From assembly GCA_003663445.1 (NCBI GenBank), contig QMZZ01000001.1, positions 1 through 29,562 on the forward strand: a stretch of 29,562 bases of DNA. The letters are read 5' to 3'. This stretch comes from Candidatus Aenigmatarchaeota archaeon. Its GTDB lineage: Archaea > Aenigmatarchaeota > Aenigmatarchaeia > QMZP01. A program made the translations under genes and the position numbers. The notes beneath the pieces were generated by a model. It had not been told where the DNA came from. It was given only the letters and a program-made list of their open reading frames with translations, and ran no database searches. This document shows positions 2,265 to 29,554 of the stretch, one piece after another. Numbering within the stretch: position 1 is the first letter of the stretch; the number at the start of each line of letters is the position of its first letter.

Positions 2265-2783
2265 ATGCCTGTTTCCACGAAGTTCACCCTCGAGCAGGCA
2301 CGGGCCCTTGAGGAAAAGCTCAAGGAAGAGCTGATCCGAAGGGCAATCGAGCAGAAAGTGATCACCTCGAGGGAAGAAGCGGTGATCAGGGACATAATCC
2401 CTGACGTCGATCTCGGGGCAACCAGAAACGTCTGGGAGCAGACCCTCGCAACCGCAGACGCCTACAACGACGTCTACAGTGTAACCCTTCCAGACAAGAA
2501 GGTCATCGGGTTCTACGGCTTCAAGACAAAGGCCTCGACCCCCGTGGTCACAGCGGTAAAGTTTGCCCTGGGTACCGGCGGGGCAAAGGTCAAGGACATC
2601 TGGCAGGTTGAGACGGCACACACCGAGCTCAACGCAGAGGCAAGGGCAATAGTGCCCATCATCTACAACAAGTCCGAGACAGTAACGATCAGCATGTACA
2701 ACTCAGGGTCAGCAGGTGCGACTGACAACGTGATTCTCCTCGGGTTCGTGGTCGAGCCGAAGGGTGAGCTCGTAACGCAGTAG
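2265..2783 (+). CDS. Candidate major capsid protein 1 (single jelly-roll) with N-terminal helical arm
   Basis: First gene of the structural operon, RBS GGAGGG. About 40-aa amphipathic helix followed by alternating beta-strand pattern, ending LLGFVVEPKG. The fold is inferred. Confidence 0.55.
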   Translation: MPVSTKFTLEQARALEEKLKEELIRRAIEQKVITSREEAVIRDIIPDVDLGATRNVWEQTLATADAYNDVYSVTLPDKKVIGFYGFKTKASTPVVTAVKFALGTGGAKVKDIWQVETAHTELNAEARAIVPIIYNKSETVTISMYNSGSAGATDNVILLGFVVEPKGELVTQ

Positions 2784-2793
2784 GAGGGTTTGA

Positions 2794-2886
2794 ATGCCAA
2801 GGAAAAAGAAGGAAGGGGAGCAAGACAGACCGACTTCCCCGATAGGGGTAGTCAATAGACTCAAGCTAAAAAAGTTAAGGAGGTAA
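2794..2886 (+). CDS. Basic 30-aa microprotein
   Basis: MPRKKKEGEQDRPTSPIGVVNRLKLKKLRR; RBS GGAGGG upstream; fills the gap between the two capsid candidates. Confidence 0.55.
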   Translation: MPRKKKEGEQDRPTSPIGVVNRLKLKKLRR

Positions 2887-2889
2887 AAA

Positions 2890-3387
2890 ATGGGCTACAT
2901 CCACAAGGTAGACCTGGAACCGGTAGCTCTGCCTGGAGAGAACATAGTGATCCTGCCGGACAACAAGCCCTTCAGGGTCGCCTGGATTGAGCCCCTGCCC
3001 GCGATAGACAAGGACTTCGGCAGCCTCGCGGCCGGGGCCGAGACCGGGGACACGGAGGTCACGGACGTCTACACAGACGAGAACCAGCTCGTTCAGTTCA
3101 GGATAATACCCCTGGACGACGTCGAGGTCACGGTCAAGCAGCCGAGAGCCAAGGGAAGGTGGGTCACCAAGGTGGTTCAGGCAAAGCTCATAAAGGACAA
3201 CCCCCACGACAACCTCGCGGAGATGTTCCAGTTCGAGGACCGGGGCCTGTTCTTCAACGTGAAGAACCCGACCAGCTACACCCTTCCGGCCTCGAGGGTC
3301 AGGCTCGTCGGGTTCAGGTTCGTTCTCGAGCCGCTCTCCGAGATGCCGGAGAAAAAGACCTACGTGGTCGTGGGAGGAAACGAATAG
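2890..3387 (+). CDS. Candidate major capsid protein 2 (single jelly-roll)
   Basis: 165 aa, beta-strand-rich, RBS GGAGGT, similar in size to 2265..2783, ends RVRLVGFRFVLEP. Confidence 0.5.
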   Translation: MGYIHKVDLEPVALPGENIVILPDNKPFRVAWIEPLPAIDKDFGSLAAGAETGDTEVTDVYTDENQLVQFRIIPLDDVEVTVKQPRAKGRWVTKVVQAKLIKDNPHDNLAEMFQFEDRGLFFNVKNPTSYTLPASRVRLVGFRFVLEPLSEMPEKKTYVVVGGNE

Positions 3388-18099: not shown

Positions 18100-18474
18100 T
18101 TACTTGAGCAATGACCTTAGTTCCTCTACTGTGTGTATTGTCCTTCTCTCTTTGCTTGGATATCTTTTTTTTGGTAGTCTCGATGGGGCACTGTAGCCTC
18201 TCATTTCCTCTCTGATGTAGTAGGCTATTATCGGCAGACCGTCTTTGAAGCCTTTCTCTCCCTTGTGTTTCGAAGCGATTTCGGCGAAGTGTATTCTTGT
18301 TTCAATTTGTCCCTTGTGTGGACTCACTACTGTGTATGGCTGGTTTCTCAAAACGACGAGCTTTTTCCTTGCCCAAGGCACTGGCTTGACTTTCTGGATA
18401 CCCACTGCTGACAAAGCTGCTCTGGGCAGCCCGACCGTAGACATGGTCAAGCTCTCAGGTCTTAACAGGGCCAT
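18100..18474 (-). CDS. Basic protein, candidate nucleoprotein A
   Basis: K/R-rich; PYTVVSPHKGQIETRIHFAEIASKHKG; own BRE/TATA and RBS GGAGGTG. Confidence 0.55.
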   Translation of the reverse strand: MALLRPESLTMSTVGLPRAALSAVGIQKVKPVPWARKKLVVLRNQPYTVVSPHKGQIETRIHFAEIASKHKGEKGFKDGLPIIAYYIREEMRGYSAPSRLPKKRYPSKERRTIHTVEELRSLLK

Positions 18475-18535
18475 TTTTTTACACCTCCTATTTTTTAATT
18501 AATCAGAACCCCTTTAAATATTTTTTCCTTAACCA

Positions 18536-18892
18536 CTATTTTGTGGCTAAAATTCCCCTTTTTCCCTTAAGTAACCTGAGCAACTTCGCAGCCTTTATTA
18601 TGGTCTCGAGCCTGATCCTCGCGGCTGTCTCGAGCCTTTCCTCCCAGATGGCCTTTTTCTTCCTTCTCCCGACGGGCTTCATTTCCCTTTCTATTAGCTT
18701 GGCTGCCGGGGGCAAATCCTCGGTCATTTTCATGCCTTTCGCCTTCTTGGCGATCTCGGCGAAAAGTATTCTGGCTTTAATCTGGTTCTCGGTTGGGGTA
18801 AAAGCCGTTCTCGGGACAGCCCTGATGTAAACTTTGGGCACAGGCTTTTCCCTTCTAACTATCTGAAGGTCGGTAAGAGATCGAATCCTCAT
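18536..18892 (-). CDS. Basic protein, candidate nucleoprotein B (paralog of 18100..18474)
   Basis: PRTAFTPTENQIKARILFAEIAKKAKG. Confidence 0.55.
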   Translation of the reverse strand: MRIRSLTDLQIVRREKPVPKVYIRAVPRTAFTPTENQIKARILFAEIAKKAKGMKMTEDLPPAAKLIEREMKPVGRRKKKAIWEERLETAARIRLETIIKAAKLLRLLKGKRGILATK

Positions 18893-19259: not shown

Positions 19260-20161
19260 TCCCTTTCCTTTTCCTTCTCTATTTGTATTAGCTTTCTGAC
19301 AACCCTCTTTAACCAAGGCACATACTCAACAGGTATCCTTTTCCACTGGGCGAGTCTTTCTATCTTGTAAGGGATCTTCAAGTATTTCACTAAAGGCAAC
19401 AAACCATATTTTTTCAATCTTGTCTCATCAGAAACGAGGTACGACTCGACTGGCCCACCAAACAGCGAGGCGAGGGTTATCATTGTCTCGTCATCCAGAG
19501 TTTTAAATGGTTTTCCGGTTTCTGGGTCTATTTTTATCACTATTTTTGGTTCTCTCATCTGGACGGGCTTAAGTTCCTCTGGTATTTCGGCTATGGTTGG
19601 CGGTGCGGTGGGTGGCGGGGTTGGAGGTGCGGGGGGCCTGGCTCTCGCTTCCGCCAGGGCTTTCTCGAGCTCCTCTATCCTCTTCTCCGCAACGCTCAGG
19701 GCCTCCCTGAGAAGCCGTATTGTCAGCTTGTAATCTTCGCTCTTTCTTTTTGCCTCCTCCCTCGCCCTTTCGAGCTCCTTTTTGGTCTTCTCGAGCTCCC
19801 GCTTTACTTTGTTTAACTCTGCTGGTGTGACTTTGCTTTCCTTCAGCTTTTCAAGCTCCCTCTCCAGGGATGCAACCCTTTCCTTGTAGAATCTGAGCTC
19901 TTCAAACTCCGCTCCAGGGGGGTATTCCCCTGTGATTTCCTCTTTTATTCTGGTCAGGTTTTCGGCATAGCTTAAGGCTGGATCTATGATCGCCCTGAAA
20001 TCAACCGTTTTGTAGTCGATATAGTATTCATCGCATAGTCGCTTGAACTGGTCGAAAAGGGTTCTGAGCTCGAGAAAAGTCATTCCTGTCTTTATCCTTG
20101 CCCTTTTCCACTCGCTCCAGATCCGCTTCAGGAACTCCTCATCCTCTCTCGTGAGTGCCAT
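19256..20161 (-). CDS. Coiled-coil protein with Pro-rich hinge
   Basis: About 90-aa E/K/R heptad region, then RPPAPPTPPPTAPPT, then a globular C-terminus. Confidence 0.6.
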   Translation of the reverse strand: MALTREDEEFLKRIWSEWKRARIKTGMTFLELRTLFDQFKRLCDEYYIDYKTVDFRAIIDPALSYAENLTRIKEEITGEYPPGAEFEELRFYKERVASLERELEKLKESKVTPAELNKVKRELEKTKKELERAREEAKRKSEDYKLTIRLLREALSVAEKRIEELEKALAEARARPPAPPTPPPTAPPTIAEIPEELKPVQMREPKIVIKIDPETGKPFKTLDDETMITLASLFGGPVESYLVSDETRLKKYGLLPLVKYLKIPYKIERLAQWKRIPVEYVPWLKRVVRKLIQIEKEKERE

Positions 20162-20252
20162 ACCTAATTATGATTATGTTCCCCATCCTTTTTATTTCCA
20201 TTTCGGGTTTCCCCTTCCTGATCCAATCCCGATACAAATCCTCAAGAGTCAT
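20139..20252 (-). CDS. 37-aa hypothetical protein
   Basis: MTLEDLYRDWIRKGKPEMEIKRMGNIIIIRYGTHERG; ATGA overlap. Confidence 0.45.
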   Translation of the reverse strand: MTLEDLYRDWIRKGKPEMEIKRMGNIIIIRYGTHERG

Positions 20253-20386
20253 TCCAGTATAATGGTCTCCCCTGACTCGTACCGAAATCTGCAACCACAC
20301 TCCAAGCAGATTTTGTGCTTCCCGTGCTTTTCAGTTTCCACATCTATATATGTATTCGAGCCGTGACATCTCGGACAGAACACCAT
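20249..20386 (-). CDS. 45-aa zinc-ribbon protein
   Basis: MVFCPRCHGSNTYIDVETEKHGKHKICLECGCRFRYESGETIILE; RBS GGGGGTG. Confidence 0.65.
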   Translation of the reverse strand: MVFCPRCHGSNTYIDVETEKHGKHKICLECGCRFRYESGETIILE

Positions 20387-20390
20387 ACTT

Positions 20391-20642
20391 TCACCCCCCT
20401 GTTGTTTGATCATAAAGCGGTTTCTCTACTGCAAAGTTGTAATTCAGGTTGTAATAAAAATGACGGATAAACTCGAGGATCTCGTACAGTCCCTTCAATT
20501 CGAGGTTTTCTGGCAAAACATCACCACCGTACTCCCAAACCACTACAGTAGTCCCAAACCTCTCCAGCTCTATTCTGTGGTTTCCCTTGATCAGCCATGC
20601 TTTCTTGAAGTTCAAATCTATTGTCGGTTTGTCTCCTTTCAT
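20391..20642 (-). CDS. Hypothetical protein
   Basis: RBS GGAGGTG; operonic spacing. Confidence 0.6.
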   Translation of the reverse strand: MKGDKPTIDLNFKKAWLIKGNHRIELERFGTTVVVWEYGGDVLPENLELKGLYEILEFIRHFYYNLNYNFAVEKPLYDQTTGG

Positions 20643-20662
20643 TTTTCACCTCCTTTACCCGC

Positions 20663-20920
20663 CTATTCCTCTACCTCCAGCCATCCAAACCCCCTGCTCA
20701 CCCTCACGAATACTTCCTCTGCATACAATAGCCCATATGTTGTCTCGGTTATGCCAGAAATCCCGACTGACACAATCGAATCCTCGAGATCCAAATTGAT
20801 TCCCCTCTTTTCCAGCACCTTTTTTGCTATCTCCTTTGCCTTCTCCTCGAGCTCCTGGAATGTCTTCCCTGTCAGGGAAAATTTCATTTCGACCTCGACC
20901 ATTCCTTTTATTCTGACCAT
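20663..20920 (-). CDS. Hypothetical protein
   Basis: RBS GGAGGTGA. Confidence 0.6.
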   Translation of the reverse strand: MVRIKGMVEVEMKFSLTGKTFQELEEKAKEIAKKVLEKRGINLDLEDSIVSVGISGITETTYGLLYAEEVFVRVSRGFGWLEVEE

Positions 20921-20981
20921 CTGATCACCTCCTTTTTTCTGATGGGAAGGTTGGGAGCGACCCCAGAACCTTCCTAATCTT

Positions 20982-21164
20982 TTACCACTCGGTTTCTTGC
21001 ATTTCTCCAGTTTTTATTTTTCTATTACAAAATTCCCTGAGCGACTCTGCAGAGGGGAAAGGTATCTCAAGAAATTGCCCTACTGGTTCACTCATACTTT
21101 TCAGTTTCCATGTTCCCCCCTCTCTTATTCTTATCCACACTTTTCCTTTCCAAAGCACAGGCAT
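20982..21164 (-). CDS. Hypothetical protein
   Basis: RBS GGAGGTGA. Confidence 0.6.
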   Translation of the reverse strand: MPVLWKGKVWIRIREGGTWKLKSMSEPVGQFLEIPFPSAESLREFCNRKIKTGEMQETEW

Positions 21165-21170
21165 ACATGA

Positions 21171-21455
21171 TCACCTCCTTTTTTCTACCTTTTTTATTTT
21201 TAGTTTTGATGATTTTCTAAATCTAACAGGAAAAAAAGTTTTAACTATTTGCTCATCTCCACATTTTTCACACTTTACTCTATACACATATGCTTTACTT
21301 AAAAATTTTCTAAATCTTTTTTCAATTTCCACATAAATCAAAAAATAATCACCGCCACATTTCCAACATTTTTGATTTTTTATGATATAATTATCCAAAC
21401 AAAAACTACTGCAAAAATCAAATTCACATTCTTTCCCACAATATTTACATCTCAT
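21171..21455 (-). CDS. Cys-rich zinc-finger protein (AT-rich gene)
   Basis: CKYC, CSSFC, CWKC, CEKC; first gene after a BRE-TATA promoter. Confidence 0.65.
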   Translation of the reverse strand: MRCKYCGKECEFDFCSSFCLDNYIIKNQKCWKCGGDYFLIYVEIEKRFRKFLSKAYVYRVKCEKCGDEQIVKTFFPVRFRKSSKLKIKKVEKRR

Positions 21456-21498
21456 ATTAATAATATTGATAGATAGTATTTAAATACTTTTCGGTTTT

Positions 21499-21769
21499 GG
21501 TTTCCTTTCTCGGTTTCCTTTCTTGGTTTACTTTTTGGTTTCCTTGTATAGTTACATTAAAAACTCAACCTACTTTATAAGGTATAAATATATAATAAGG
21601 GGGTACAAGGCAGCAAGGAAACCAGGAAACCAAGTAAACCAAGGAAACCGAAAAAAACCGAAAGCCGTCTCACTCTCGGTTTACTTCTTGGTTTCCTTGC
21701 GGTTTCCTTGTGGTTTACTTTTTGGTTTCCATCCCCAAGGAAACCGAGCTGCAAGGAAACCAGGAAACC
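21499..21769. repeat. Four alternating-orientation arrays of the GGTTT(C/A)C heptamer (16 copies)
   Basis: Forward at 21499, 21512, 21525, 21537; reverse at 21617, 21625, 21634, 21643; forward at 21678, 21690, 21701, 21712, 21724; reverse at 21739, 21755, 21763. Confidence 0.9.
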
Positions 21770-21770
21770 A

Positions 21771-21794
21771 ACCGAAAAGTTTAAATATTAGTTA
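21771..21794 (+). promoter_or_regulatory. BRE+TATA early promoter
   Basis: accgaaaagtttaaatattagtta; 23/24 identical to the minus-strand promoter at 29412-29435. Confidence 0.8.
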
Positions 21795-21824
21795 ACAACA
21801 TTATTTAATATAGGAGGTGGTAAC

Positions 21825-21923
21825 ATGAGAGAAAAGTGGATCAGGTTTGATCAGAAGGGCCGAATATTAGACATAAAGGGTGTTTGGACATTCGAGGAGC
21901 TTAGGAAAGTGCTCACGAAATAA
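21825..21923 (+). CDS. 32-aa microprotein
   Basis: MREKWIRFDQKGRILDIKGVWTFEELRKVLTK; RBS GGAGGTGG. Confidence 0.6.
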   Translation: MREKWIRFDQKGRILDIKGVWTFEELRKVLTK

Positions 21924-21938
21924 AGGAGGTGGTGAGGC

Positions 21939-22700
21939 ATGAAGAGTGTAATAGCTTTTAAAACACAAGAAACAAAAAAAGTTTGCGGCGATATGGATCT
22001 GGAACGGTTTGACTTTGAAGAAGAGAATTATATCATAAATACAACTGTAGATTTCAGAGACATTCTGTTTGAATTTAAAGTGAACACAAAAACAAGAAAG
22101 CATGTACTTGTTGAAGAAGACAGTGTTTTCAACGAACTTTTTGAGTTTTTTGAAAAAAACAAAGATAAAAAAATTATTCTTGAATCAGCGATATGTGACT
22201 ATAGCTACTTAGACATAAGAACATCTGAACAATCTTTTAGTTTGCAAGCTGTTAAGTATAAAATACAAAGCTTTGAAAAATATATTGCAGCAATTTACTT
22301 TTTGAATCGTCACAGAAAAAAATATAATATCGAAATTAGAGTCGAGCCTGGCGATATAAAGCTAAAGCTCAACAACGAAGAAATAATTGAACACACTAAC
22401 TTTATCGAATACAGAGACTATGTCTTTGTAGATTATAAAGATTTCTCAATATATCATTTAATTGCTTTAGAGAGTGCTATAGAATATGCTCTTGAAAAAA
22501 ACAAAAAGCTGATAGTGCTTGCAAAAAGCGATTTCGGACAGCCCTGTAAATGGTGCTATGAACTGAGAATTGTGCAGTTATCAAGACGAAAACTACTCAG
22601 TATACTTAAAGCAATAAAACAGCTTGACCGAAAACTTGAAAATAGTAGAAAGAGTTCGAGAGATGGAGGGATGCGAAGAAATGGCTGGAGGAAAGGATAG
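21939..22700 (+). CDS. Hypothetical protein (AT-rich gene)
   Basis: 253 aa, RBS GGAGGTGGTGAGG; no motif recognised. Confidence 0.65.
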   Translation: MKSVIAFKTQETKKVCGDMDLERFDFEEENYIINTTVDFRDILFEFKVNTKTRKHVLVEEDSVFNELFEFFEKNKDKKIILESAICDYSYLDIRTSEQSFSLQAVKYKIQSFEKYIAAIYFLNRHRKKYNIEIRVEPGDIKLKLNNEEIIEHTNFIEYRDYVFVDYKDFSIYHLIALESAIEYALEKNKKLIVLAKSDFGQPCKWCYELRIVQLSRRKLLSILKAIKQLDRKLENSRKSSRDGGMRRNGWRKG

Positions 22701-23088
22701 CGGAACGGCTGAAGGACTGAAAACCATTGTTTTCGGGAAAGCTTTCTCACTATTGAGAGACAAAAAGGTCAGGTTGGTTGCGGATACGAAAAGGGCCTGG
22801 CATTTCGAGGTCGAGGGCACCAGGGAAACCCACGATGTCATGATCAGACAGGACGGCGGGATAAAGCTGATATGCACTTGCGAGTTCTCGAGCATAAAAC
22901 CAGAAATGCTATGCTCCCACAAGGTCGCCTGCTTGATGTATATTTTCCAAAACTACTGTTCAGGAGTGAAAATCAGGGATGACATCCTGTCGGGCCTTGA
23001 ATACTACAAGGATCCAGGGGAAAGCTGGGAAACATTCGTAAACTCGGTTCTGGAGGAGTGGTTGATAGAGAAAAAAACAAAAAAATAA
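22681..23088 (+). CDS. SWIM zinc-finger protein
   Basis: LICTCEFSSIKPEMLCSHKVAC (CxC...CxH); start re-called at MAGGKD. Confidence 0.75.
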   Translation: MAGGKDSGTAEGLKTIVFGKAFSLLRDKKVRLVADTKRAWHFEVEGTRETHDVMIRQDGGIKLICTCEFSSIKPEMLCSHKVACLMYIFQNYCSGVKIRDDILSGLEYYKDPGESWETFVNSVLEEWLIEKKTKK

Positions 23089-23204
23089 AAAAAGAAAAAA
23101 GAAAAAAATAAAAAGGTTTCCTTGGTTTCCTTCTCGGTTTCCTTGGTTTACTTTTTTGGTTTCCTTTTGGTTTCCTTGGGGTTAAATTTATAAGGAAGGA
23201 AACC
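23071..23204. repeat. A-tract followed by a second GGTTT(C/A)C array (7 copies)
   Basis: A-rich 23071-23114; forward copies at 23115, 23124, 23136, 23145, 23158, 23169; reverse copy at 23198, downstream of TTTATAA. Confidence 0.85.
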
Positions 23205-23215
23205 AAAATAGATAT

Positions 23216-23848
23216 ATGCCCAGATTGAGCACGGAAACCATCAAGGAAATTAGGGATGCTCTTTCTCGGGGGGAGAAGTGGTCTGAAATCATGAAGAATT
23301 TTGGGATTTCAAAAAAAACCGTTTCCAGAATAGCGAAGCTCACGGATCAGGAGATCGAGGAGCTCGAGAAGAAGGAGCTGAAAAGCAAAACCGAAGAAAA
23401 GATCAGGGTAAGCAGGTATCCCGTACCATCTGGTCAGGTTGCGGTCAGGCGGGAGCTCGAGGATGAAATCGTGAAAAGGAGCACATCCGACATAGTTCAG
23501 GCCCTGGACATAGGGTATTGGTGCCTGAAAACCAGAATAAAGGACATAGCCGAGACCCTGGGGATGACCCCAAAAAAGCTGATCACCAGATCGGTAGGTT
23601 TTTACGTTTTCAGGAGAAAGGAATACCAGAAACTGGTTGAAAAATACGAGGGGTTAAAGGTTTTGGTAAAAAGGTTGCTTTTGTTACTCGCCCCTGAAAT
23701 CCAGAGGAGGCTGAAAATACGGATGCTTCTCCTGGCCATGTCTGTATATCTCAGGCACGGGGTCAAGCCCCCAGAGGAGCTGGTAAATGCGTTCAAGGAC
23801 GAGGTTATGGGTAACAAAAAGAAGGAGGAGGTGGTTGTGAATGGCTGA
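23216..23848 (+). CDS. N-terminal HTH DNA-binding protein with helical C-terminus
   Basis: IRDALSRGEKWSEIMKNFGISKKTVSRIAK is a classical HTH. Confidence 0.7.
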   Translation: MPRLSTETIKEIRDALSRGEKWSEIMKNFGISKKTVSRIAKLTDQEIEELEKKELKSKTEEKIRVSRYPVPSGQVAVRRELEDEIVKRSTSDIVQALDIGYWCLKTRIKDIAETLGMTPKKLITRSVGFYVFRRKEYQKLVEKYEGLKVLVKRLLLLLAPEIQRRLKIRMLLLAMSVYLRHGVKPPEELVNAFKDEVMGNKKKEEVVVNG

Positions 23849-24860
23849 AAAGGCGAAGGACGAGGAAGTGCTGGAGATAGTGAGTAAGGCCCTGGACAAG
23901 AGCAAGCCAGAGGTGATTTCTGACCTGGTGAATCTGCTTTCGGACATGGACGGGAAGCAACAGGGAGGGATCTCGGAGCTGGCGGAGCTCCTGAAGGAGA
24001 CCAAAGGGGACAAGGGAAGCGTGATCAAGGACGTGGTAGAGGCAATAGCTCTTGAAAGGCTGCTGAACAGGGACGGGGACGGCAACATAGTCAGGGATGT
24101 CTTGAGGTGGGCGATTCCGCTCAGGTATTTATCCCCCCTGATCTCTGGGCCGGAGCAGAAGGGCATGGACTTCAAGGACATGTTTTTGCTTATGAAGCTG
24201 GCCGACGGGGACAACAAGACCCTGGAGAGAATGCTTCAGTTCCAGCAGGAGCTGGAGAAAAGGAGGCTCGAGGAGCAGGGAAAGCAGCTCGAGGAGCTGA
24301 AGAACCTGCTCTGGGGAAAGCAGCTCGAGCAGACCAAAAAGGAGACTGAGCTGAAGATAGAGAGGATCGCCCAGGCCCTGGAGAGCCTGGAGCAGAGAAT
24401 AGCCCAGAACACAACACCAGAGGAAAGGAAAGGGCTCGTGGATCAGATCAGGGAGCTGAGCGAGATCAGGAAGGAGCTGAAAGGCCTCCTTGAGGACGAG
24501 TTCGGAGGCGGGGTCGTGGACAAGTCAGGGAAACCTAACTACGCCAAGCTGATAGAGCGGGGACTGAAGACGGTCGAGGAGATAGGGAAAAGCCTGGCAC
24601 AGAGAGCACCGCCACAGCAGCCCATCCAGCCCATGCCGATCCAAATCCAGCCGAGAATCGAGCAGGAACCCAAACCCGAACCCAGTGTCGAGCTGAAGGA
24701 AGAACCGAAGCCAGAACCGCAGGAAAAGCCAGAGGAGCAGAAATTCGAGTTCATAGCCGAGCCAGAGCCGACGCCGGACCAGAACCTCGACATAAAGCCA
24801 ACCAAGCTGCCAGAGGAAAACATAGAGGTCAAAGAGGATAAAAAGGAAGAAGGACAATAA
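23841..24860 (+). CDS. Large coiled-coil protein with Pro/Glu/Lys/Gln-rich disordered tail
   Basis: Long heptad regions; C-terminal EPKPEP-type low complexity. Confidence 0.65.
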   Translation: MAEKAKDEEVLEIVSKALDKSKPEVISDLVNLLSDMDGKQQGGISELAELLKETKGDKGSVIKDVVEAIALERLLNRDGDGNIVRDVLRWAIPLRYLSPLISGPEQKGMDFKDMFLLMKLADGDNKTLERMLQFQQELEKRRLEEQGKQLEELKNLLWGKQLEQTKKETELKIERIAQALESLEQRIAQNTTPEERKGLVDQIRELSEIRKELKGLLEDEFGGGVVDKSGKPNYAKLIERGLKTVEEIGKSLAQRAPPQQPIQPMPIQIQPRIEQEPKPEPSVELKEEPKPEPQEKPEEQKFEFIAEPEPTPDQNLDIKPTKLPEENIEVKEDKKEEGQ

Positions 24861-24865
24861 GATTT

Positions 24866-25243
24866 ATGGATGAAAGGGAAATCAGAAGGGTTTTCAGCAG
24901 TAGATCGAGGGTTCTCTCGCTCATAACCCTGGGGATAAAGCAGATAAGGGCGGAGGAGCTGGAAAATGCTATAAAAAGCGGGTTCGACCCGTCGCTCCTG
25001 ATCTTTAACCACCTGTCTGGCTACATGAACAACCCCATCCTGAAGCCGATTATAAGGGCCGGGTTGAGGAAGTGGTGGGGGGAGATAGAGTCGGTTCTGA
25101 CCGACGCGAGGAAGGTTTACGGAATCCTGACAGAAAACAGGCCGGACCTGAAAAGGATCCTCGACACGGAAAGGGGGAGAAGGTGGCTGAACTGGGCGGT
25201 TTACCAGAGCTATTCGAACCTGTATAGGTACACCTGGTTGTAA
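24866..25243 (+). CDS. Hypothetical helical protein
   Basis: 125 aa, operonic with flanking genes. Confidence 0.6.
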   Translation: MDEREIRRVFSSRSRVLSLITLGIKQIRAEELENAIKSGFDPSLLIFNHLSGYMNNPILKPIIRAGLRKWWGEIESVLTDARKVYGILTENRPDLKRILDTERGRRWLNWAVYQSYSNLYRYTWL

Positions 25244-25482
25244 TGCCAAGGCACGAGGTTCACAGGATGGTGGCGAAGGCGGTTCTCGGAAAGGCATACC
25301 CAGAGGTGGATAGGTTTCTCGACTGGCCCTACAAGATTCTGGGGCCAAGGCACAGGGTTCTTTTCCACGATCTGAAAACCACTCCTGCCATGGTGACACT
25401 GCTGACGGGCGACGTCAGAAAGGGGATGGCCGCGGCGGTTCACATTCTCCTGGACAAGACCTTCAGCAAACGAACCAGATAA
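25243..25482 (+). CDS. Putative minimal metal-dependent hydrolase (YdjM/DUF457-like His/Asp constellation)
   Basis: H7, D27, H37-R38, H42, H67, D71. Confidence 0.45.
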   Translation: MPRHEVHRMVAKAVLGKAYPEVDRFLDWPYKILGPRHRVLFHDLKTTPAMVTLLTGDVRKGMAAAVHILLDKTFSKRTR

Positions 25483-25813
25483 ACCTATCCCAGGGGAGGC
25501 CGTACACTTTCAGCTCCTTTTCGGACATGCTTTTGTTCGGGTAGAGAACCCAGACACCCTTCCTTTTGAACTTCACGACAAGAAAAGCCAGTCCGCCCTG
25601 ATCCATAAACCTCTCCATGAACTTCATCTCGCTTTCTGGCACCCTGATCCTGCTTCCAGATGAATACTTGCACTCGAACCCGAAGGTTTTACCGTCCTTG
25701 AGGGCGACCACATCTATTCCCCCGGATTTTGCAGACCTGATGACCACGAACCCGTGCTTTTTCAGCTCGTTCACAAGCCAGTTTTCAAATCTATATCCCT
25801 TCCTGTACCCCAT
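25463..25813 (-). CDS. hjc: Archaeal Holliday junction resolvase (PD-(D/E)xK)
   Basis: KGYRFE..LV..L...GF.VIRSAKSGGIDVVA...FGFECK. Confidence 0.85.
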   Translation of the reverse strand: MGYRKGYRFENWLVNELKKHGFVVIRSAKSGGIDVVALKDGKTFGFECKYSSGSRIRVPESEMKFMERFMDQGGLAFLVVKFKRKGVWVLYPNKSMSEKELKVYGLPWDRFIWFVC

Positions 25814-29411: not shown

Positions 29412-29435
29412 TAACTAATATTTAAAGTTTTCGGT
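29412..29435 (-). promoter_or_regulatory. BRE+TATA early promoter
   Basis: Reverse complement is accgaaaactttaaatattagtta; TATA 29 nt upstream of ATG 29397. Confidence 0.8.
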
Positions 29436-29554
29436 TTTTTTATTTTTTTCTTTTTTTATTTTTTTATTTTTTTTTCCTTTTTTATTTTTTTTAAATAGGG
29501 GGGTATTTGATAAAAGTTTAATAACACTGTTATATTCATATTATGTAATTTTTT
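29435..29554. repeat. Right half of candidate origin: T-tract, inverted-repeat arm, degenerate direct repeat
   Basis: T-tract 29435-29492; tttaataacactgttatatt 29517-29536; attcatattatgtaa 29534-29548 (12/15 to 36-50). Confidence 0.7.

Follow-up and report, generated by a model that had tools for sequence, protein, structure and literature searches.

Site arrays abutting three promoters form a probable multi-site operator system in a portoglobovirus-like archaeal virus

The locus described here is most probably a multi-site operator system with a new family of HTH proteins, carried by a new portoglobovirus-like archaeal virus. It comprises two arrays of a short polar site, array 1 (21499-21769) between two divergent promoters and array 2 (23115-23239) at the promoter of a gene for an HTH protein, referred to below as A. 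We hold it at somewhat better than an even chance that the arrays are multi-site operators for this virus-encoded protein, controlling the divergent operons and its own gene.

The window, the whole stretch of DNA that was analysed, is one complete contig (C1, 29,562 bp) of a 574-kb, 111-contig, 71%-complete assembly, the relatives of which have genomes of DPANN size. Pfam scans of the contig identify a DNA methylase, a NosD/beta-helix protein, a trypsin-like protease, a glycosyltransferase, RNase H, a Hjc-type resolvase and SWIM fingers. The same scans of its ORFs found no Rep, primase, helicase or Orc gene and no member of the ParA family; no ParA, ParM or TubZ-type NTPase was found, and none of the scanned ORFs matched an integrase or recombinase family. 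The contig also has no Walker-A protein, the six-frame scan giving a single chance hit in an 87-codon open frame. Blastn of 20000-25500 against phage and plasmid collections gave no match.

The kind of element is suggested by a 172-aa protein (2265-2783), homologues of which are found on metagenomic contigs. Modelled together with these homologues, it forms a jelly roll with an N-terminal helix (pTM 0.74), a fold matched best over the whole length by the SPV1 (Sulfolobus polyhedral virus 1) capsid protein (6oj0_A, TM 0.52/0.50). Because of this match the contig is best read, as far as the model goes, as a portoglobovirus-like virus or virus-like element. SPV1, of the Portogloboviridae, packages nucleoprotein-coated DNA without a packaging ATPase. 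Capsid-like paralogues number two in the window (2265-3387) and three in relatives. Two basic paralogous proteins (18100-18892) are kept in the related loci L156 (up to 64% identity), L155 and L134, and this conservation fits a core role such as coating DNA. The G+C content is 34-38% in the regulatory region (20500-23000) and 55-60% in the structural module, with distant relatives at 29-38% throughout. Binning and a single motif in common, the palindrome ATAACANNGTTAT discussed below, are the grounds for the probable assignment of the contig to this host.

The site sequence and its confinement are observed directly. Array 1 contains exactly 16 copies of GGTTTMC within 270 bp, and a recount agrees with the earlier note in finding four forward, four reverse, five forward and three reverse copies (++++ ---- +++++ ---); array 2 contains eight, six forward and two reverse. 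The window as a whole has 53 copies against 11 ± 3 in shuffles, none of 100 shuffles reaching 53. The copies of the 7-bp motif first described are present, but the unit is longer: TT directly follows GGTTTMC in 22 of the 24 clustered copies and in none of the 29 scattered ones, and the clustered copies usually have T/C-T directly before it. The true site thus exceeds 7 bp and measures about 9-11 bp, approximately TTGGTTT(C/A)CTT, and the scattered copies can be set aside as background because none has the following TT. All 20 occurrences of the 9-mer GGTTTMCTT on the contig fall in one or other array; the remaining 545 kb of the assembly have 12. No cluster of three or more copies was found elsewhere in the 574-kb assembly, which is 71% complete.

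The first array is bounded, as had been proposed, by two outward BRE-TATA promoters, with the TATA word TTTAAATA at 21477-84 on the minus strand and at 21780-87 on the plus strand, each preceded by the BRE CCGAAAAG. TTTAAATA is used throughout the contig (16 copies against 0.86 expected) and typically lies 26-29 nt before the ATG of leaderless first genes. The leftward promoter, P_L (21477-21494, minus strand), drives the leftward operon, whose first gene (21171-21455) is leaderless and encodes a 94-aa Zn-finger protein; the promoter's TATA-to-ATG distance of 29 nt is that of the other leaderless genes of the contig. The rightward promoter, P_R (21772-21787, plus strand), drives a 32-aa ORF (21825-21923), a 253-aa gene (21939-22700) and a SWIM-type Zn-finger gene ending at 23088. 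An atlas look-up of the 253-aa protein gave weak nuclease-like leads at most. A third promoter (29419-29440, minus strand) has a BRE/TATA and downstream sequence nearly as in P_R (ACCGAAAA-C/G-TTTAAATATTAGTTA), with a T/A tract upstream where P_R has the site array.

Between P_L and P_R the sites are arranged in four blocks of alternating polarity. Block 1 (21499-21543, plus strand) begins 4 bp from the P_L BRE and has four forward sites with start-to-start spacings of 13, 13 and 12 bp (TRF score 77), and a degenerate copy, GGTTTTG (21493-21499), overlaps the edge of that BRE. An A+T-rich gap follows (21544-21616, no strand), in line with the earlier description; it measures 73 bp with 71% A+T and ranks with the contig's least stable 60-bp windows. 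The gap contains TTTATAAGG at 21574-82, an exact word found elsewhere only as the TATA of the HTH gene promoter; this box has no purine-rich BRE and no start codon downstream, and the gap may be a bendable spacer or an internal promoter. Block 2 (21617-21663, minus strand) consists of four reverse sites spaced 8, 9 and 9 bp apart and then two degenerate AAACCGAAA units, and block 3 (21678-21730, plus strand) of five forward sites with a period of 11-12 bp (12, 11, 11, 12). Block 4 (21739-21769, minus strand) has three reverse sites spaced 16 and 8 bp apart, the last of them 2 bp from the P_R BRE, and the sites at 21724 (+) and 21739 (-) form a 7-8-7 inverted pair across its boundary with block 3.

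The period therefore differs by orientation within the array itself, at 11-13 bp in the forward blocks and 8-9 bp in the reverse blocks (block 4 including the interval of 16). The spacing of 8-13 nt given previously holds for most copies but not for the 15- and 16-nt gaps around block 4. Nine forward and seven reverse copies fall into four orientation runs (P = 0.0098, exact runs test). The sub-cassette GGTTTAC-T5/6-GGTTTCC recurs at 21525, 21712 and 23145, all three as reported. A CRISPR-like reading of the array was rejected, the units being just 7-13 bp, as was a coding reading, the sole ORFs across the array beginning with TTG and consisting of the repeat itself.

The forward part of array 2 (23115-23175, plus strand) is built of three 21-bp units with two sites each (TRF period 21, score 78) and stops 4 bp from the BRE of the HTH gene promoter (23180-23204, plus strand), whose TATA box TTTATAAG at 23187 lies 29 nt before the ATG (23216). 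Of its two reverse sites, one (23198-23204) is located between the TATA box and the start of the gene, and the other (23233-23239, minus strand) falls inside codons 6-8. The sites at 23169-75 and 23198-23204, whose centres are 29 bp apart, form a palindrome (I6) with the TATA box in the middle and 26-nt arms of 81% complementarity. Long A-rich/T-rich tracts of a AAAAAAAT-type unit lie at both contig ends (96-134 and 29435-29492) and just upstream of array 2 (23071-23114).

At all three promoters, P_L, P_R and that of the HTH gene, the array edge is 2-4 bp from the BRE. The proposal that the arrays are dense, polar sites of the protein-binding type in a region of divergent promoters is supported. 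In each array the sites nearest the promoter have a defined direction, away from P_L and from P_R but towards the gene A promoter. It is only at the gene A promoter that a site takes the archaeal repressor-type position between TATA and transcription start, the start being placed by the leaderless geometry.

When viral, metagenome and genome collections were scanned for runs of three sites, hundreds of uniform but unrelated tandem repeats came up, either 10-11-bp satellites or repeats with a coding period (9 or 15 bp). Among these matches were L248, a contig with eukaryote- or giant-virus-like genes, and L212, a 750-bp satellite. In none of them were alternating polarity or homologues of window proteins (RNase H excepted) found.

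The candidate binder of the sites, A, is a 210-aa protein encoded at 23216-23848 on the plus strand. It carries a three-helix HTH at its N-terminus (residues 6-40), where Pfam HTH_23 matches residues 16-41 weakly (E 2.6e-5, narrowly missing the cut-off), and in the model a helical domain for dimerisation at about residues 92-158. A word-indexed protein search with A returned the self-match only; A was not found in 60 relatives' genomes, and 371 genomes of the phylum gave only matches to the N-terminal HTH. Exhaustive phmmer searching recovered about a dozen full-length relatives at 24-30% identity (alignment A1), and A is a member of a previously undescribed HTH family. When alignment A1 and the 253-aa protein were used as queries for related loci, they gave no loci or too low a conservation.

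The AF2 model of A, with the family alignment as input, has a pLDDT of 85.7 and shows the three-helix HTH followed by long helices. In fold searches of the PDB and AlphaFold clusters, the HTH head matches the IstA transposase, serine recombinases, ArdK and KorA, the ArdK and KorA matches being weak (E 0.16-1.3) and restricted to the HTH part; nothing beyond the head was matched in either collection, and neither the model nor the fold search revealed an enzymatic domain. The best PDB sequence match, 8vd6, is a designed repeat protein and was set aside as uninformative, and an atlas look-up gave generic HTH leads only. The homodimer model scores 0.45 (best control 0.00) and passes a mark that was reached by 20 of 30 proteins solved as pairs of one chain but by only 1 of 23 single-chain structures. 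Its three runs have at least 55% of contacts in common, with a partner pLDDT of at least 68. The modelled interface is two-fold, covers residues 92-158 and leaves the HTH heads free, which supports a dimeric A at the level of the model.

Blastp and tblastn show three genes to be co-conserved with A, namely B (339 aa), C (125 aa) and D (79 aa), which occupy 23841-25482 on the plus strand. B has a coiled coil and a Pro/Gln/Glu-rich tail, with a conserved D-x-SGK-x-N motif before the tail (alignment A2); no known family or function match was found for B, C or D. In the relatives A heads the same module, with B of 320-410 aa, C of about 130 aa and D of about 80 aa. Counterparts of the window's capsid-like and basic proteins are encoded on some of these contigs, and we take the A-module contigs to be related viruses on that account.

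Conservation of the arrays, proposed earlier as a check, is found in part: the GGTTTCC motif itself is not conserved, but short tandem repeats recur at the promoters of HTH genes homologous to A. The relatives are few and distant; of the eight whose upstream sequence is usable, about six have lineage-specific short tandem repeats, located with TRF within about 150 bp upstream of the A gene, that abut the TATA of the A homologue. In L157, 12 of the 22 TTTCCA copies of the locus fall within 250 bp upstream of the A gene, with a period of 10-11 bp and a few of them inverted, and the highest TRF score in the locus belongs to this repeat (6.8 copies, period 11). L156 has 20-bp repeats containing (A)GGAAAAC upstream of the A gene, again the top TRF score of its locus, while L159 has three to five TGAAG(A/T)AAA units and L136 four to five T(A/G)AACA units with a 9-bp period, the last unit lying at the TATA box in both. 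In L158, GTTT(T)C-type sites face GAAA(A)C-type sites around the TATA box, and L134, which has the synteny of the window, has mirrored divergent promoters (a 77-nt inverted repeat) enclosing a TTAACA array.

A core of TTT(T)CC / GGAAA(C) is common to the motifs of several relatives and to the site of the window. L155 and L133 have the A gene without a comparable upstream array, and in the parts fetched of the distant capsid relatives L128, L130 and L131 neither A nor arrays were found. The shorter arrays of the relatives are suggestive, because a crude count of exact 6-mers singles out the window and L157 as exceeding their own-locus background, with L136, L156, L158 and L159 not doing so. Elsewhere in L158 (4177-4254), the top tandem repeat of the locus, a 25-bp repeat in three copies, lies upstream of a small HTH_24 gene and is probably the operator of another regulator. 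A tRNA-like sequence was spotted by eye in a divergent intergenic region of L155 (9440-9520, minus strand).

The HTH protein had been named among those to be tested for binding to the sites, and as judged from sequence it is the best candidate, its gene having an array at its own promoter and analogous repeats at its homologues in relatives. From the arrangement of sites and the model of A we infer binding, cooperativity and looping as follows. Each small N-terminal HTH head, carried on a long arm, would read one site of about 9 bp within TTGGTTT(C/A)CTT, and the dimer would be held together through its central helices. Head-to-tail blocks would allow many A dimers to be loaded side by side. 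Opposed blocks, or the two arrays 1.4 kb apart, would offer two-fold symmetric partner sites for bridging by a dimer, and a dimer so bound would impose a bend or loop on the DNA spanning the A+T-rich gap. It speaks against A as the reader that a two-fold symmetric dimer is a non-obvious reader of head-to-tail repeats.

Since each array stops 2-4 bp from a BRE, occupancy of the arrays could act on TFB/TBP at P_L, P_R and the gene A promoter. In archaea, sites upstream of the BRE usually activate, and sites over TATA/BRE or between TATA and start repress (PMC5512572). A most likely represses its own gene, because inverted sites bracket the TATA and one site separates the TATA from the start, the classical position for an archaeal repressor. 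Sites solely upstream of the BRE, by contrast, take the usual position of archaeal activators (PMC5512572), so that the arrays may act in either sense. At P_L and P_R we lean modestly to repression, because both already have a consensus BRE and TATA; it would be exerted through cooperative occupation and the bridging of opposed blocks. The polarity of the sites relative to each promoter, away from P_L and P_R and towards that of A, may set different outcomes.

The arrays could also be operators read by another protein, such as the 94-aa Zn-finger protein, a viral Zn/SWIM protein or a host factor, with A merely one of the genes regulated. Several genes for small Zn-finger and SWIM proteins lie on either side of the arrays, what ties A to the sites is its nearness and its co-occurrence with arrays in relatives, and A is present in L155 and L133 without a visible array. 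We regard this as unlikely, since A is conserved across relatives and the genes left of the arrays are not, and since the arrays of relatives abut A's own promoter; the lack of a site cluster elsewhere in the host-like assembly argues against the factor of a host regulon. The same blocks would be distinctly unlikely as a replication origin, in which opposed initiator sites flank an A+T-rich unwinding element and A or the host Orc1/Cdc6 serves as loader. Blocks 1 and 2 do face each other across the gap, so that the repeats adjoin an A+T-rich region as plasmid iterons do, array 2 is iteron-like in its 21-bp units, and the contig, encoding no replication protein, must recruit the host replication machinery somewhere. 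Bacterial oriC has opposed DnaA-box arrays, plasmid iterons are likewise repeats of initiator sites, and archaeal oriC has short polar elements (ORB/mini-ORB), which resemble the present sites in being opposed and in flanking an A+T-rich stretch. Here, however, no orc1/cdc6 is adjacent, the contig has no Rep, primase, helicase, Orc or Walker-A protein in the scans, A has no enzymatic domain, and an origin does not require abutment to BREs at three promoters. The iteron origin of the earlier note is not borne out for want of a Rep-like protein on the contig and because a better origin candidate exists elsewhere; the skew analysis it suggested is silent, as GC skew tracks gene direction on the contig and is of no use for locating an origin. 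That better candidate is ATAACANNGTTAT, a 13-bp palindrome with nine copies in the 574-kb assembly against 0.19 expected. A pair 99 bp apart lies directly upstream of orc1/cdc6 (contig C11 of assembly G000, at 837 and 936), where no GGTTTCC cluster was found in this 71%-complete assembly, and copies at the ends of the viral contig (55-67 and 29521-29533) would be 96 bp apart if the contig were circular. This distribution links the contig to the host lineage, and ATAACANNGTTAT may be an origin element or the site of a host factor common to virus and host. Other copies adjoin TATA boxes, and single copies occur in the relatives L134 (4370) and L158 (3981).

A role in genome handling, either as a centromere-like partition site or as a nucleation site for condensation or encapsidation without a packaging ATPase, with A as adaptor and B or the basic proteins (18100-18892) as partners, strikes us as quite improbable. 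It would accord with the jelly-roll capsid model and its best match to the SPV1 capsid protein, with the conservation of A-B-C-D as a module and of the basic proteins in relatives, and with sites at only two places in the genome, which could mark viral DNA as self. Omega and ParR act both as centromere-binding proteins and at operators, there together with a motor ATPase; here no ParA, ParM or TubZ-type NTPase was found, and the partition site proposed earlier is disfavoured by the absence of a Walker-A protein anywhere on the contig. Nothing ties B, C and D to virions or partition, and the BRE/TATA abutment and TATA-bracketing palindrome are explained by transcription control and unneeded for packaging. 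We give a similarly small chance to a combined device of portoglobovirus-like viruses in which the arrays, dimeric A and coiled-coil B would mark the viral chromosome for nucleoprotein condensation, encapsidation or partition without an NTPase and double as a transcriptional switch. Least of all do we expect the opposed blocks to act as nucleic-acid structure, as a DNA cruciform or as a small-RNA hairpin started from the TTTATAAGG box, which we consider very improbable. The region folds far better than shuffles (z = -11.1 for DNA; z = -5.4 for RNA at 21600-21735), and the gap holds a TATA-like word identical to that of the gene A promoter; but any opposed repeat blocks fold in this way, and the box has no purine-rich BRE. 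As the block periods differ (12-13 and 8-9 bp) and the spacers are not complementary, pairing is limited to the 7-9-bp cores, which speaks against selection for pairing and against the cruciforms or hairpins first suggested, and Rfam gave no family at gathering score over the window.

The multi-site operator reading has partial counterparts. KorA of RP4 and ArdK of R388, global regulators of plasmids, also combine small HTH heads with a dimerisation domain and act on repeated operators at several promoters of a mobile element; they are bacterial proteins of about 100 aa with single inverted or direct repeat operators, and no sequence kinship to A beyond the HTH was detected. In its presumed mode of working, the locus appears nearest to the Apl/Cox arrays, the omega heptads and the EarA sites, and it stands outside these families because spacing, binder fold, partner genes and promoter type differ. 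Apl of phage 186 and Cox of P2, RDF-type regulators at the switch between lysis and lysogeny, use many direct-repeat sites about one helical turn apart between two early promoters, with a monomer on each site, head to tail, binding cooperatively and bending the DNA (bioRxiv 10.1101/784983). Short repeat sites between two promoters and a second set of sites elsewhere in the genome are common to both. In contrast to the small winged-helix excisionases Apl and Cox, the candidate binder here is a 210-aa HTH protein and a modelled dimer; their second site set lies at att beside the integrase, here at the HTH gene promoter with no integrase found; their early promoters face each other, here archaeal BRE/TATA promoters diverge; and their direct repeats of one turn compare here with forward spacings of 11-13 bp, reverse spacings of 8-9 bp and alternating polarity.

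Omega (ParB) of pSM19035 recognises a 7-bp unit in both orientations at several promoters of one replicon and needs at least four repeats (PMC9499535). The locus resembles this system in having a 7-bp unit in both orientations and arrays upstream of several promoters of one replicon. The omega heptads, however, are contiguous with a 7-bp period and tolerate no gaps, whereas the start-to-start distances here are 8-16 bp and never 7, and omega is a ribbon-helix-helix dimer that works with a ParA ATPase, where the present candidate is an HTH protein and no Walker ATPase was found. The EarA sites at the fla promoter of Methanococcus maripaludis, several 6-bp copies immediately upstream of the BRE (PMC5512572), share with the present sites, as do other archaeal upstream activator sites such as those of Ptr2, the placement of short sites directly before the BRE. 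EarA has four sites against 16 plus 8 here and makes up for a weak BRE, whereas consensus BRE/TATA elements are present at P_L and P_R; no site brackets TATA at the EarA promoter, while the TATA of gene A is bracketed.

Regulation in archaeal viruses is poorly known, and viruses of hosts of DPANN size are almost unstudied. The locus provides a concrete candidate pair of regulator and operator, with a site of about 9 bp in 24 copies, three promoters and an HTH family with a conserved gene module. It could serve to examine the action of a bacterial-type regulator on the eukaryote-like BRE/TATA machinery and, with its unequal spacings and changing polarity, is well suited to work on cooperative loading and looping. 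Should the arrays prove to act in genome condensation or replication as well, they would have a bearing on the selection of DNA by portoglobovirus-like viruses in the absence of a packaging motor.
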